Virus record (IMG/VR): IMGVR_UViG_2534681979_000007
Reading direction: 5' to 3' (one strand)
From: a virus
Lineage: Duplodnaviria; Heunggongvirae; Uroviricota; Caudoviricetes
DNA length: 7,161 bases
Position numbers and translations under genes: made by a program. This document shows, piece after piece, positions 1 to 7,161 of this stretch. Each line of letters begins with the position of its first letter. Within the stretch, counting starts at the first letter, position 1. The notes below the pieces were generated by a model, which had not been told where the DNA came from, searched no databases, and worked only from the letters and a program-made list of their open reading frames with translations.

Positions 1-174
1 AAAAAAAAGGGATCTAGCTATCTCTATCCCTGTGTGCTTGCAGTCTCAGTTTGAACATAATAAAACGTTGATCAGCGGAACTTTGATTACAGAGCCAAAG
101 TTGACGACCGTAATTATGCACTGAAGGAAAGGGAGTTTAACGCTAACCAGAATTACCGGAATGCGTCACTGGGT

Positions 175-1167
175 ATGGAGCAGCAGCGACTCCAGTTGCA
201 GAAATACAACCAGCGACGGCTTGAGTATAACGATATGATTGCCCATAGCCAGCCACTAATGGAAGCGCTTGGAAAAGCAATTGAGGCTGGCGATCAGGAG
301 GCTGCAACGCGTCTGTTCGGGCAGCTGCCAAAGGGACATCCATTAATTCTTATGTCAAACGAAGGCTATGCAGCGAAAGCGGGTCAGGCCGTGATCAACC
401 TGCAAAAAATCTTTGGTGATAAGCCGGACATGGCGATCGATTCGCTGAATACCCCGGAAAATCTCGATGTGCTTTCCGGCGTGTTTGCCCCGGAACTACA
501 ACAGCGTATTGGCATGCCTGATTCAACCGGGGAAAAAACGATAAAAGAGGCCAGGATTGGCAGTATCGTACCAGCGCAGCAGGAAGGGTACGTACTTATT
601 GGCCTTGATCTCACATACAGCGATGGCTCCACCGCGCATAAACCTGTAACAGAATACGGCAGTGCGCACCCTGATGATCAAACCGTGCTGGCGATACCCG
701 TTGATAAGGCTATCGCTCAGGTCAGGGATCGCAGCAAATTTGCAGAGATATCGAAAAATTATGGTTATTTTATGCCGAAGCAGCAGGGACTTTCTCTGAA
801 AGAGCTTCAGAAGGGGGCCAGCAACGTAGCGGCGGACGCGATCAAGAATGGCGGTAATGCTCAGGCTGCGGTGGATGAATATTATGCTGCGACTGGTTCA
901 CAACCGCATCAACAGAAAATTCAGCAACAAAAACTTCAGCAACAGGTTATCAACTGGGCGGGAGATGATCCTGATAAGCTGTCATTTGCCAGAAATGTAG
1001 CGGCCCGTCAGCCTGAAATGCTGGAACCTCAGAATCAGAAATTGCTGGAGAACGGGTATGCGAATTTTCTCCGTATTCAAAAGGCCAGGGGGGAACAGGC
1101 CAGAGATGAAAGTGCTTCATCTGCATCTCAGTTTATCCGTGGACTGAAACAGAATTACGCCCAGTAA
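175..1167 (+). CDS. Hypothetical protein, 330 aa, hydrophilic with a Gln-rich segment; first gene of a three-gene co-directional cluster
   Basis: Complete ORF in frame 1 from the six-frame track. Frame 1 has tandem stops at 58..63 and no ATG/GTG/TTG between 64 and 174, so ATG 175 is the first available start. The Shine-Dalgarno upstream of 175 is weak (ctgggt). The ORF ends at TAA 1165..1167 and is followed 34 nt later by a hairpin plus T-tract. No recognisable catalytic motif seen by eye. Confidence 0.7.
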   Translation: MEQQRLQLQKYNQRRLEYNDMIAHSQPLMEALGKAIEAGDQEAATRLFGQLPKGHPLILMSNEGYAAKAGQAVINLQKIFGDKPDMAIDSLNTPENLDVLSGVFAPELQQRIGMPDSTGEKTIKEARIGSIVPAQQEGYVLIGLDLTYSDGSTAHKPVTEYGSAHPDDQTVLAIPVDKAIAQVRDRSKFAEISKNYGYFMPKQQGLSLKELQKGASNVAADAIKNGGNAQAAVDEYYAATGSQPHQQKIQQQKLQQQVINWAGDDPDKLSFARNVAARQPEMLEPQNQKLLENGYANFLRIQKARGEQARDESASSASQFIRGLKQNYAQ

Positions 1168-1200
1168 TTCACGATATTCCATTAATACCATTTCCTGATG

Positions 1201-1225
1201 CCCGGCCATTGTGCCGGGTTTTTTT
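1201..1225 (+). terminator. Rho-independent terminator-like hairpin: 6-bp all-GC stem (CCCGGC / GCCGGG), 6-nt loop (CATTGT), followed by T7
   Basis: Read directly: 1201..1206 cccggc pairs with 1213..1218 gccggg, loop 1207..1212, then ttttttt at 1219..1225. It lies in the gap between the stop of gene 1 (1167) and the probable start of gene 2 (1237). Confidence 0.5.
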
Positions 1226-1236
1226 ATGGAGTCTGT

Positions 1237-1998
1237 ATGGCCTATTCAGAGGAACAGCGTCCTGAGGCGCAACTCGGTAACCAGAATCGTAACAGCCTGA
1301 ACATTCAGCAACCCGGCGAAACTGACAGCTATGAAGCATTTTTCTCTGATCCGAATCGCTGGAAGGATAACAGTACGTCGTTCAGCCTGGGCGATGTATT
1401 GCCAACAATGGGTAAAGGTTTCGCCCAGTCCGTCCGGGGAACAGGGGAAATGGCCCGTGGACTCGGTGATGCGATGATTCAGAGCCCGGTAAAAACAGGG
1501 GCGCGTATTTTAAATGAGTTTAGCCGTATGGGGCTGCCGGGTGTCGCAACTGTGCAGGATATTTTTGCCGGTGGCAGCAGGGGGGCTGATGAGGTCATCG
1601 ATACCCTGCCTGATGGCAAAAACGCGGTTACTGATACTGTCGGTAAAGGTCTGAAGGCAACCGGTAAGGCTGTCAGTGATGGTGCCAAAGCCACTGATGA
1701 ATGGCTGACCGGTAAGATGTCGCCGGGTGCAGTTCGTGCGCTGAATACGCCGATGACCGAAGGCTATAATGATTCTGCGGTCTGGGTGGCGAAGGGTGTA
1801 AACCTGATTGGTGCGCTTGTACCTGATATGGTTGCTGGCGGTGTGGCTAGAAAGGTGGGTGATGTCACACTGCGAAAAATGCTGACCGCCGGGCTGGAGA
1901 AAAAATACATCGCGGCAGGGATGCAGCCGGAAAGAGCCACGGCACTGGCAGCAGAAGCTGTCGATAAAAAATGCCGGATTTATTCCAGGCGGGCCTGA
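1237..1998 (+). CDS. Hypothetical Gly/Ala-rich protein, about 253 aa, with a hydrophobic segment near the C-terminal third (VWVAKGVNLIGALVPDMVAGGVA)
   Basis: Frame 1 ORF listed in the track as 1198..1998. The ATG at 1198 lies immediately before the terminator hairpin so that the hairpin and T-tract would be coding. The in-frame ATG at 1237 is preceded by GGAG (1228..1231) with a 5-nt spacer, so 1237 is the preferred start. Stop is TGA 1996..1998. Confidence 0.7.
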   Translation: MAYSEEQRPEAQLGNQNRNSLNIQQPGETDSYEAFFSDPNRWKDNSTSFSLGDVLPTMGKGFAQSVRGTGEMARGLGDAMIQSPVKTGARILNEFSRMGLPGVATVQDIFAGGSRGADEVIDTLPDGKNAVTDTVGKGLKATGKAVSDGAKATDEWLTGKMSPGAVRALNTPMTEGYNDSAVWVAKGVNLIGALVPDMVAGGVARKVGDVTLRKMLTAGLEKKYIAAGMQPERATALAAEAVDKKCRIYSRRA

Positions 1999-2036
1999 TC
2001 ACCCATTCCACTGTAAGTGCACAGGGGCAGAGTGCA

Positions 2037-5000
2037 ATGGCGGCAGCAGATGCTGTTCTTAATGCTGATTACTCTGAGCTGGCGCAGTCACCGAAATTTC
2101 AGCAGACGTTTTTGTCCATTGACGCCGACCCGCAGCACGCACAGCTTACTGATCGCCAGAAAATGGATCTGGCAAAAGAGCGTGTTGCCGATGAGGTGCG
2201 CGCGCAGCTGGCAACCGATCCTGAATTGCTGGCTGTGAATGCCATGGCGGCAAAACTGGGTGACGCACAACTGTTTAATCTGGTGACACGAGGCACAGCG
2301 AAGACCGTTAAAAGCGGCATTGTCAGAAATGCCACTGCACAGGGGGCGATTAATGCGGCGCAGGGCGGCTATTCACGCTATCAGGAAAACACGGCATTGC
2401 GTGAGACCGCCGGAATGGATGTATCGCCATGGGAGGGCGTGGCTGACGCAACGATCGAAGGTGCTGCCCTTGGTGCTGCGATGGGGGCTCCATTCGGTGC
2501 GGTTGCCGGATATCGTGGCAGACGTCAGGCCGCAGAAGAAACCGCCATGCGTGATGCTGAAACCGTGCAGCAGGACGACGCAGCCCCGCAACCAGAATCT
2601 GTTGATCCGGTGGCGCAGCAGCGTGAATCCATGCAGGGCATGAATCGCGAGCAGCTTCTGGAGCAGTATGCTGATGCGGATATGGCAACAGAGGGTGACG
2701 CATCCGCAGCTCATCGCCGGGAAGCTGCCAGCCAGTTGTTGAATGAACTGGACGAACAGACGAAGCGACAGGCTGTGATGAATGAGCTGAAGGCGAAGCC
2801 GCGTTCTGAACTGCTTGAGGAATACCGCAGACTCAGCCAGAAAGAGGGGCGCACCGAGACTGAAGAACAACAGTTTCAGGCAATACGAGAAGTCATTCGC
2901 CCACAACAGGAAGTGACGCCGGAAGCACAGTCACAGCCTGAAAATGCGGAGGATGGTAACGGGAGCATTTACCCGACGGTGCGGTTCCGGGACCCGAATG
3001 AAGTCCGCATTGAAATTAACGGGAATGGTGCGTCCAGACCAGCGGAACGCATTGAGAAGGTGCGCCCGGACAACCGTTATTTCACGGATGAGAAAAGCGC
3101 CATGGGGAGTGATGTTTTCCGTAATGCCGCCGCCACCGGCCTGAAACCGTCCGTAGTGAAGAAAGGCGAGAATCAGTATGCCGTTGAAATGGATAATCCT
3201 GCGTTCTCTGAAGATGTGGCAACGGAGACCATTAACACTCTGGCTGACGGAGAGCGTATTACTGATGCTGATCCGATGGAACAGCCCGCGTTCATGCGTG
3301 ACCCGCGATTCCGTGGTTTTACGGGGGATGATACAGAAGTGCAGGCCCGTCTTGCCCGTGGCAACGCGCCGACGGCGGAAGAACTGGTGCGTTCCCAGAT
3401 GGCTGAAGGTGATGCCGGTCCGACAGCACAGGAGTTAACTGAGCGTCCACGCCTTCCCGCTCCCGGCGATATTCATCCCGGACAGGGATATCCGTTACCA
3501 GGAGAAGTGGCGCGTACGCCGGATGAAAATCAGGCCGGACGTGGTGGTCGTTTTACCACAACCGGTGAGGTGAAGGGCCAGAGTTTCCAGAAAGGACGTG
3601 AGCAGGCACCGGAAAATGCCGCTGGTCGCCAGGGGGAAATACTGGAGGGCGAAACAGTTCGTCGTGGTCTGCCGTCACCGGATGAGCAGAACGCCACAGC
3701 ACCAGTGCGTGAAGGACTTCCTGCACCTGAAAGTCAGCGTGGGGTTGATATGCCACAGCCTGAATCACTCCCTCGTATGGTTCGTGACTCCCTTCCGGAA
3801 CTGGCACAGCAGGCAGAAGCACGCAGACAGACCGGGGATAATCGCCAGACCATAACCGATGTTCCGGATACTGAGGTGCCGGTGCCGGTAGATAAACCGA
3901 GCACTCACCAGCAGGTGCGTGGTGCGAAAATTGAAGACTTTGGCGAGGAGATTAAGGGCGCGGCAAAACACCGTTATGCGCAGCTTGCTGAAGCTATGGG
4001 TAAAACGCTGGAGGATGGGGAGTACGCGACACAACCACTGAGCAAACTGTTTCCAAAGCCGGATTATGCCCGTCTGGAAAAAGAAGGTGTGGATAGTGAC
4101 ACGCTGGCAATGATGGCGTTGTATCGCAGTGAAATTCCCACCAGAACAAGCCGTAACATGCAGAAATGGATCAGCATTGTTAAAAGCGGTCGCGAAGCTA
4201 CTGCCGGTATGCTGGAGGGGAAAATTCCGGCAGCGAAACTGGCTGATATGATGGACAGTAAGCCGGGGTTACGGAGCATGTCGGATACCTGGAAACTGCT
4301 CCGTACGCTTTCTGCATTGCAGATTGATAAAGCATCCGGCTATCGTGTCAGGTCCGGTGTTTATTCGTTTGTCGGGGGAAAACGTTACGATCCGCCGCAA
4401 ATGATGTATTCGCTTCGTGATAGCAAGGGGCGCGACCTCTTTTTCTCGGAAAGCCGGGATGAGTTACTGAAAAAGGCGAAAGCATATTTCGATGAACAAG
4501 GCTCCAGAGAAAGGGAAACGCCAGCAACCTCTGCTGATGACAGAATAACCTTTGACGTGTACCGGCATAAGGCCAGTGGCGACATTTTTATCGGTTATGG
4601 CAAAAACAGGCAGAAACTGAAGGGCGGTTTTGAGTCTGCCCGTGATGCACATGATTATGTGCGCACACATCGTGATGAGCTGGTTAATCAGGTGAAGGCG
4701 CTGCGTGAAGTCTCGCGTGAGGAGCAGCGTAACGCCACCAACCGCGATCGTACCGGACCAGAACGCCGCAAGGGGGATGTTTCGCCGGAGCAGTTCAGTG
4801 ATGCGTTTGGTTTTCGTGGTGTGCAGTTTGGTAATTATGTGGAAAGTCCGCGTCGTCAGGCTGATTTGAACCGGGCTTATGACTCGCTGCATGACCTGGC
4901 TGACGTGCTGAACGTGCCGACAAAAGCGCTTTCTCTGAACGGTCGTCTTGGGCTTGCTTTTGGTGCCCGTGGTAAGGGTAAGGCGGCGGCACACTATGAG

Positions 5001-7161: not shown

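Follow-up and report, generated by a model that had tools for sequence, protein, structure and literature searches.

The short-tailed Shiga toxin (Stx) phages carry a giant late gene whose product has already been studied in several of them. In Sp5, a prophage of E. coli O157:H7 Sakai, it is ORF80 (ECs1242, 2,793 aa), which with eight others makes up the genes essential for morphogenesis; mutants lacking it produce DNA-filled heads to which a tail-fibre antibody does not bind (PMC5155283). In phi24B it is gp47, which was detected in virions by mass spectrometry, is absent from the cryo-electron microscopy maps and has been proposed to be an encapsidated ejection protein (2026 preprint). Phage 86 has it as gp35 (YP_794082). 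Here we describe a copy of this gene in a stretch of viral DNA of 7,161 nucleotides (IMG/VR record IMGVR_UViG_2534681979_000007; "the window" below, always at its full length and numbered from its first base), in which an earlier note, made from the letters alone, had reported a giant open reading frame (ORF) running off the end. Our analysis showed that the window contains the end of a late gene like Sp5 ORF79 followed by the first ~70% of the giant gene of 933W/Sp5/phi24B-type phages. Taken as a whole, the window is very probably a piece of this known gene in a chimeric, error-bearing Ion Torrent contig, and its protein is one that would be packaged into the virion and ejected from it.

The window is the whole of contig AFOB02000356.1 from the draft genome (GCA_000215685.3) of the E. 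coli O104:H4 outbreak isolate LB226692; an exact-protein match placed the 330-aa ORF at 175-1167 on that contig, the same coordinates as in the window. For the LB226692 draft (AFOB), reads were obtained in 2011 on an Ion Torrent Personal Genome Machine, the assembly was made with MIRA and CAP3, and among 1,144 core genes the authors had to correct 51 manually for homopolymer errors (PMC3140518). Database comparison gave matches to the window in 186 phage records and, out of 5,426 finished E. coli genomes, in 426; all were to short-tailed phages or prophages of the Stx type, of the kind represented by 933W, Sp5 and phage 86. Every match began at base 40, with bases 1-39 finding no counterpart in the 5,426 E. 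coli genomes. Aligned locally with the Ion Torrent/454 'A' adapter, these bases scored 15.5, while the best of 2,000 shuffles reached 13, which suggests that untrimmed adapter was left at this end. By DNA identity (95-97%), by PHROG 616 and by position as the last late gene, the giant gene is orthologous to Sp5 ORF80, phage 86 gp35 and phi24B gp47; the window copy differs from all three in being truncated at the contig end, in being a hybrid of two paralogues and in carrying two frame-breaking 1-base deletions.

The hybrid nature of the window copy is apparent from C227-11, a finished outbreak genome with two intact paralogues of the gene: copy A (2,793 aa; 2564827-2573208) in the Stx2a prophage adjoining ymdF/rutG and copy B (2,783 aa; 1881629-1889980) in a prophage adjoining ynfF. 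Two matching places each were likewise found in the finished O104:H4 genomes. We aligned the window with both copies and followed the informative sites along this three-way alignment, counting them also per 200 nt. All 391 informative sites from 40 to 3130 carried the allele of copy A and all 546 from 3227 to 6167 that of copy B, with a short switch interval in between; after that, the two alleles alternated to nearly the end of the contig (Table 1). The only window positions that matched neither copy were three 1-nt deletions. The contig is an assembler's merger of reads from both prophage copies. It might instead be a faithful record of a gene that had recombined between copy A and copy B in LB226692, as Stx-type prophages are mosaic and recombining and the single clean switch at 3131-3226 could be a crossover, but the later alternation in runs of 1-14 sites fits a mixed read consensus better, the finished outbreak genomes have two separate places, C227-11 has two intact, non-hybrid genes, and the fragment is short (7.2 kb) with one end resembling leftover adapter. 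We therefore regard a genuine recombinant as extremely improbable.

Copies A and B differ at 27% of synonymous and 5% of non-synonymous sites. The ratio of non-synonymous to synonymous divergence (dN/dS) between them is 0.16 overall and no higher than 0.21 in every 200-codon bin, and because this ratio is low we consider the real gene to be functional. Comparison of the two paralogues (L012:13038-21419 and L011:6157-14508) revealed a divergent cassette at residues ~800-1200, where the proportions of differing synonymous (pS) and non-synonymous (pN) sites are 0.60-0.67 and 0.21 and small indels occur; the cassette spans the linker end and LPD5 (see below), while the rest of the gene has a pS of 0.1-0.38. 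Such a cassette suggests mosaic exchange inside the giant gene.

In phage 86, ES5 and C227-11 the giant gene is a single coding sequence of 2,783 or 2,793 codons, and its start corresponds to window position 1237 (MAYSEEQRPEAQ...). The frame-1 ORF at 1198..1998 of the window is the N-terminus of this gene. At an A-tract near its end, one base is missing relative to relatives and the gene moves to frame 3; after a second missing base, close to the contig end, the homology leaves frame 3 and continues in frame 2. The window copy thus has no intact single reading frame, being broken at 1966-1971 and at 7121-7123, while repair of both deletions and extension with copy B gave an ORF of exactly 2,783 aa. 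The third deletion, at 64/65, breaks the upstream ORF79 homologue. The coordinates of these and the other features are collected in Table 1.

Table 1. Features of the window, with the evidence on which each is placed
Feature	Position	Strand	Basis and remarks
Non-phage sequence at contig end	1..39		no E. coli match; adapter-like
ORF79 homologue, 3' three-quarters	40..1167	+	alignment to phage 86 gp34 and copy A; PHROG 601, E 2.9e-207
Terminator-like hairpin, GCCCGGC cattgt GCCGGG then T7	1200..1226	+	consensus scan; between the ORF79-homologue stop and the giant-gene start
Giant gene from its true start through codon 244, then 9 out-of-frame codons and a stop	1237..1998	+	frame 1; annotated starts of relatives
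A6 tract, A7 in relatives	1966..1971	+	1-base deletion; gene moves from frame 1 to frame 3
Frame-3 open frame	1971..7161	+	residues ~245-1960 of the giant protein
Switch from copy A to copy B	3131..3226		allele walk
LPD5	4374..4805	+	PF18799, E 2.5e-43; residues 802-945 of the translation starting at 1971; phage 86 1047-1190
Zincin-like module 1 (AHYEP ... HEWFHSLD)	4794..5285	+	with LPD1 forms a CLCA_X-like unit
LPD1	5286..5525	+	PF18796, E 4.1e-23; phage 86 1351-1430
Second HExxH (HEIIHH)	5856..5873	+	residue 1541, phage 86 gp35 numbering
Copy A and copy B alleles alternating in runs of 1-14 informative sites (mixed consensus)	6170..7153		allele walk
MuF_C	6453..6722	+	PF18819, E 8e-18; phage 86 1740-1831
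CC, CCC in all relatives	7121..7123	+	1-base deletion; homologous frame 3 to 2
LPD38	outside the window		Pfam; phage 86 2466-2671

The earlier note had described frame 3 as an unlisted giant ORF running from ATG 2037 and open to the window edge. Frame 3 is indeed free of stops from 2037 to the last base, 7161 (1,708 codons; chance ~3e-36 given the base composition), and it was missing from the ORF list for the reason that the note gave, the lack of a stop in the window, as that list leaves out ORFs running off an end. Both peptide blocks cited in the note were also found, KIEDFGEEIKG lying at nt 3927. The limits of the ORF, on the other hand, proved to be artefacts of the draft contig, as did its separateness. 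The open stretch begins at 1968 with its earliest ATG at 1971; the gene itself starts at 1237, and the methionine encoded by ATG 2037 is internal to it. Frame 3 continues the N-terminal codons of the frame-1 ORF, from which it was split off by the deletion; we rejected the idea of an independent gene beginning at ATG 2037 or 1971, given that the 244 frame-1 codons upstream are homologous to the intact N-terminus and under purifying selection. At the other side, the window edge is simply the contig end, and the last 13 codons of the ORF as first read are out of register after the second deletion. When we extended the contig 3' with finished-genome sequence, as the note had proposed, a stop was reached 33 nt past the contig end in the frame as read, and the full-length protein appeared only in the repaired frame. 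The note had held that a frame-3 stop found on resequencing would speak against its ORF; what the finished genomes of the outbreak clone contain is a longer, intact, single-frame gene. Nor is the gene new: annotations of it exist for hundreds of Stx phages and prophages, a knockout has been made in Sp5, and its product has been detected in phi24B virions.

Because finished genomes of the same clone have the gene intact, we put the broken frame of the window copy down to sequencing error. The A-tract is A7 in 399 of 400 finished genomes and A6 in one, AR-0429 (L013:8323-16700), where the gene is annotated as frameshifted; the CC allele at 7121-7123 occurs in 0 of 424. Scaffold L010, apparently a faecal metagenome sequence from the outbreak, does not differ from the window across 2,689 nt apart from having A7, and 12 of the 12 listed finished genomes named O104:H4 match window 200-3200 with a single gap (3,002 against 3,001 bases). 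All three frame-breaking deletions are almost certainly read errors, two of them within homopolymers, and a genuine A6 in isolate LB226692 is unlikely.

A few observations pull in the other direction. An identical 253-aa N-terminal fragment with A6 was called on two unrelated Logan assemblies (L003:9720-10481 and L004:8643-9404), so that A6 can be present, or arise again through error, in places other than the LB226692 contig; judging from these sequences, the A7 tract would appear either to mutate recurrently or to be misread recurrently. In addition, the base lost at 64/65 (relative to copy B) is a G that follows AAA, which makes this deletion less clearly a homopolymer error. If the frameshifts were real, the giant gene of LB226692 would be a decaying pseudogene in at least three pieces. 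Apart from AR-0429 and the two Logan assemblies with A6, this would be in line with the Logan contig ERR499299_321 (L003:9720-18097), on which the giant gene is called as four ORFs of 253, 1,191, 902 and 404 aa; natural pseudogenised copies may thus exist, although the L003 copy is either a more disrupted gene or a poorer assembly. Yet both copies are intact in C227-11, the other O104:H4-named genomes have the extra base, L010 combines A7 with identity over the remainder of 2.7 kb, the CC allele was not seen in any finished genome, and all three lesions are 1-base deletions, errors for which the platform is known and which the draft's own authors report (PMC3140518). We consider a decaying pseudogene in LB226692 highly improbable.

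The same tract, an A7 at codon ~244, could also be viewed as regulatory: expression of the giant protein would then be controlled by programmed slippage or frameshifting there, or by a contingency switch that turns it on and off. Homopolymers are prone to slippage, and A6 recurs in four independent sources. However, with A7 in frame in nearly every finished genome, recoding is not needed; from A6, a +1 or -2 shift would be required; a stimulatory structure was not seen, although no search aimed at one was made; and among sequencing errors, a change such as A7 to A6 is of the most frequent type. Programmed frameshifting at the tract was rejected on the first of these grounds, and a switch of any of these kinds seems very unlikely to us.

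Returning to the protein, the profile searches proposed by the earlier note were run and Pfam returned LPD5, LPD1 and MuF_C within the window and LPD38 beyond it, all exceeding the Pfam gathering thresholds. PHROG 616, a family of 'unknown function', spans residues 1-2783 of the phage 86 orthologue from end to end, and the C-terminal end of phrog_10089 (DarB-like) matches residues 2341-2671, including LPD38 (E 3.8e-28). The LPD domains were defined in the study of "polyvalent" proteins by Iyer et al. (2017), according to which MuF-C is a predicted RNase of the PBECR type, LPD5 may be an enzymatic domain and LPD38 is specific to phages (PMC5512222). With LPD5, LPD1, MuF-C and LPD38, the giant protein is a polyvalent protein in this sense. 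Searches of the unassigned segments (the N-terminus, the linker and the interval between MuF_C and LPD38) gave only chance-level matches at Pfam E-values up to 10, and a PDB sequence search with the full-length protein returned no relative.

Outside the Pfam-called domains the protein has two HExxH motifs. The first, HEWFH, is at residue 1274 of phage 86 gp35 (window 5055-5069) and belongs to a stretch, residues 1172-1427, that matches CLCA_X (NCBIfam NF041907) with an E-value of 5.5e-45. Using a pure copy B stretch of the window as query, we collected 83 diverse homologues, in all of which H82, E84, H103, E104, H107 and D110 (numbering of the query stretch) are invariant; H103, E104 and H107 form the conserved HExxH and D110 would be the third metal ligand. 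In the second motif, the H, E and H are kept in 28-32 of the 32-34 homologues that have the region; this region gave a weak and not significant match to Peptidase_M76 (E 0.08). An AlphaFold2 model had a mean predicted local distance difference test score of 78.9, mostly >90 in the first module, and its predicted fold appears to be nearest to zincin-type hydrolases; a Foldseek search of the model against the PDB returned nothing at E-values up to 0.001. The two modules are thus well supported as putative metal sites by conservation and moderately supported by modelled fold. In its HExxH..D arrangement, and perhaps in its predicted fold, the first module resembles zincin-type metallohydrolases such as MtfA, anthrax lethal factor-like proteins, Wss1/SprT and YbeY. 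To the known gene our analysis adds two modules, a zincin-like one whose HExxH..D is invariant and another with an HExxH that is conserved where its region is present. The phi24B preprint names MuF-C a metallopeptidase, whereas Iyer et al. name it a PBECR RNase (PMC5512222), and the HExxH modules lie elsewhere; contrary to the wording of the preprint, the metal-site modules are distinct from MuF-C.

Among described protein classes, the giant protein resembles the phage-type polyvalent proteins, which are likewise giant and multidomain, are encoded among virion genes and share LPD5, LPD1, MuF-C (PBECR) and the phage-only LPD38, as well as zincin-like modules, the zincin metallopeptidase being their main hub domain (PMC5512222). 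Its gene neighbourhood is one of virion genes, and the packaging that characterises the class is seen in the phi24B proteomics. On the other hand, it has no methylase, helicase, ADP-ribosyltransferase (ART) or ParB module recognisable with Pfam, and polyvalent proteins are mainly viewed as accessory counter-defence factors while the Sp5 orthologue is essential for morphogenesis. With the DarB-like antirestriction proteins of phage P1, also giant and virion-associated, it has only a C-terminal module of ~330 residues in common, in a region outside the window; no methyltransferase or helicase domains were found in the giant protein. The podovirus ejection proteins (T7 gp14/15/16, P22 gp7/16/20) and the virion RNA polymerase (vRNAP) of N4, the latter of comparable size, are similar in that the giant protein, too, is proposed to be encapsidated, unseen in symmetric reconstructions and released with DNA. 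The giant protein has no sequence or domain relationship with them, and no polymerase or transglycosylase domain was found in it. The functional guess of the earlier note, which offered a virion-packaged or co-transferred multidomain protein, an injection protein or a tape-measure protein, agrees with current evidence in its packaged, multidomain and injection parts, given the polyvalent domains and the presence of gp47 in phi24B virions. The tape-measure part has no support: the phage group is short-tailed and neither Pfam nor PHROG scans found a tape-measure family.

Taking these likenesses together, we propose that the giant protein is made late, would be packaged inside the capsid and is needed for a completed, infectious tail vertex. 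At infection it would be expelled with the DNA, and it may then help the DNA to cross the envelope, deliver enzymatic modules into the cell, or both. The modules delivered would be the two zincin-like metallohydrolase modules, the predicted PBECR-type RNase and the C-terminal LPD38 module, and the zincin modules may cut the polyprotein into its working parts. In the strongest form of this proposal, the protein is an encapsidated, self-cleaving polyprotein whose zincin-like modules, after ejection, free the RNase and the LPD38 module into the host; we offer this form as a speculative one that is rather unlikely to be correct in full.

There are points that the packaging and ejection proposal does not readily accommodate. 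The Sp5 phenotype, in which tail-fibre binding is lost, is unusual for P22 or T7 ejection proteins. Moreover, the protein has no classical transmembrane segment: the best 19-residue Kyte-Doolittle window scored 1.38 and the scan showed only weakly hydrophobic Gly/Ala-rich segments, and because no window reaches 1.5, a role as a membrane channel is without direct sequence support. The main mechanistic rival is that the giant protein acts in tail assembly or tail structure, possibly driven by ATP, and is not an internal ejection or effector protein. The DNA-filled heads of the Sp5 ORF80 mutant, to which the tail-fibre antibody fails to bind, speak for such a factor, and the Sp5 authors noted a match of ORF80 to COG1483, an AAA+ family (PMC5155283). 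The AAA+ hint was not reproduced in our scans, as neither Pfam nor NCBIfam returned a P-loop or AAA+ ATPase family for the whole protein or its unassigned segments (E-values up to 0.01-10). In addition, gp47 is in phi24B virions yet absent from the resolved tail and capsid shell (2026 preprint), and its set of domains is typical of polyvalent proteins that are injected. A purely tail-directed function is, in our judgement, rather improbable.

The neighbourhood of the giant gene, which the earlier note had suggested checking, consists of phage tail and late genes in a short-tailed Stx-type prophage context. The giant gene closes the late operon in phage 86, in ES5 and in each of the two C227-11 prophages, and it directly follows the ORF79 homologue (Sp5 ORF79/ECs1241, phage 86 gp34), which encodes 421 aa when intact. 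Sp5 ORF79 is essential for tail formation, and its deletion has the same phenotype as that of ORF80 (PMC5155283). In one Logan contig (L005:1960-3224) the ORF79 homologue is split otherwise, into 73 aa and 330 aa. The terminator-like hairpin between the two genes appears strong by sequence, with a 7-bp GC-rich stem, and for the giant gene to be transcribed, antitermination in the late operon would presumably be required. Just upstream, the late region (L001:8830-11853, L002:9798-9938) has small genes that look like accessory ones, for Lom/Ail, Hok/Gef and an 83-aa protein annotated as 'bacteriocin'; Lom and the bacteriocin homologue were detected in the phi24B proteomics and classed there as contaminants (preprint).

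Many of the closest database entries (P0001-P0042) come from draft E. coli assemblies, where they are 'partial' fragments confined to contigs of 1-2 kb. The giant gene commonly breaks assemblies, probably as a result of multiple prophage copies. The practical lesson is one of caution: the gene is routinely fragmented, frameshifted or collapsed in drafts, early Ion Torrent ones especially, and ORF boundaries taken from such contigs are unreliable because many enterohaemorrhagic E. coli strains carry several near-identical prophage copies. As to the biology, the Stx phages of greatest medical importance have no larger protein than this one. The metal-site modules, lying outside the annotated domains and not in MuF-C, offer concrete residues to mutate. 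If the self-cleaving polyprotein proposal were true, an essential 'tail' gene of Stx phages would encode a delivered effector pack.

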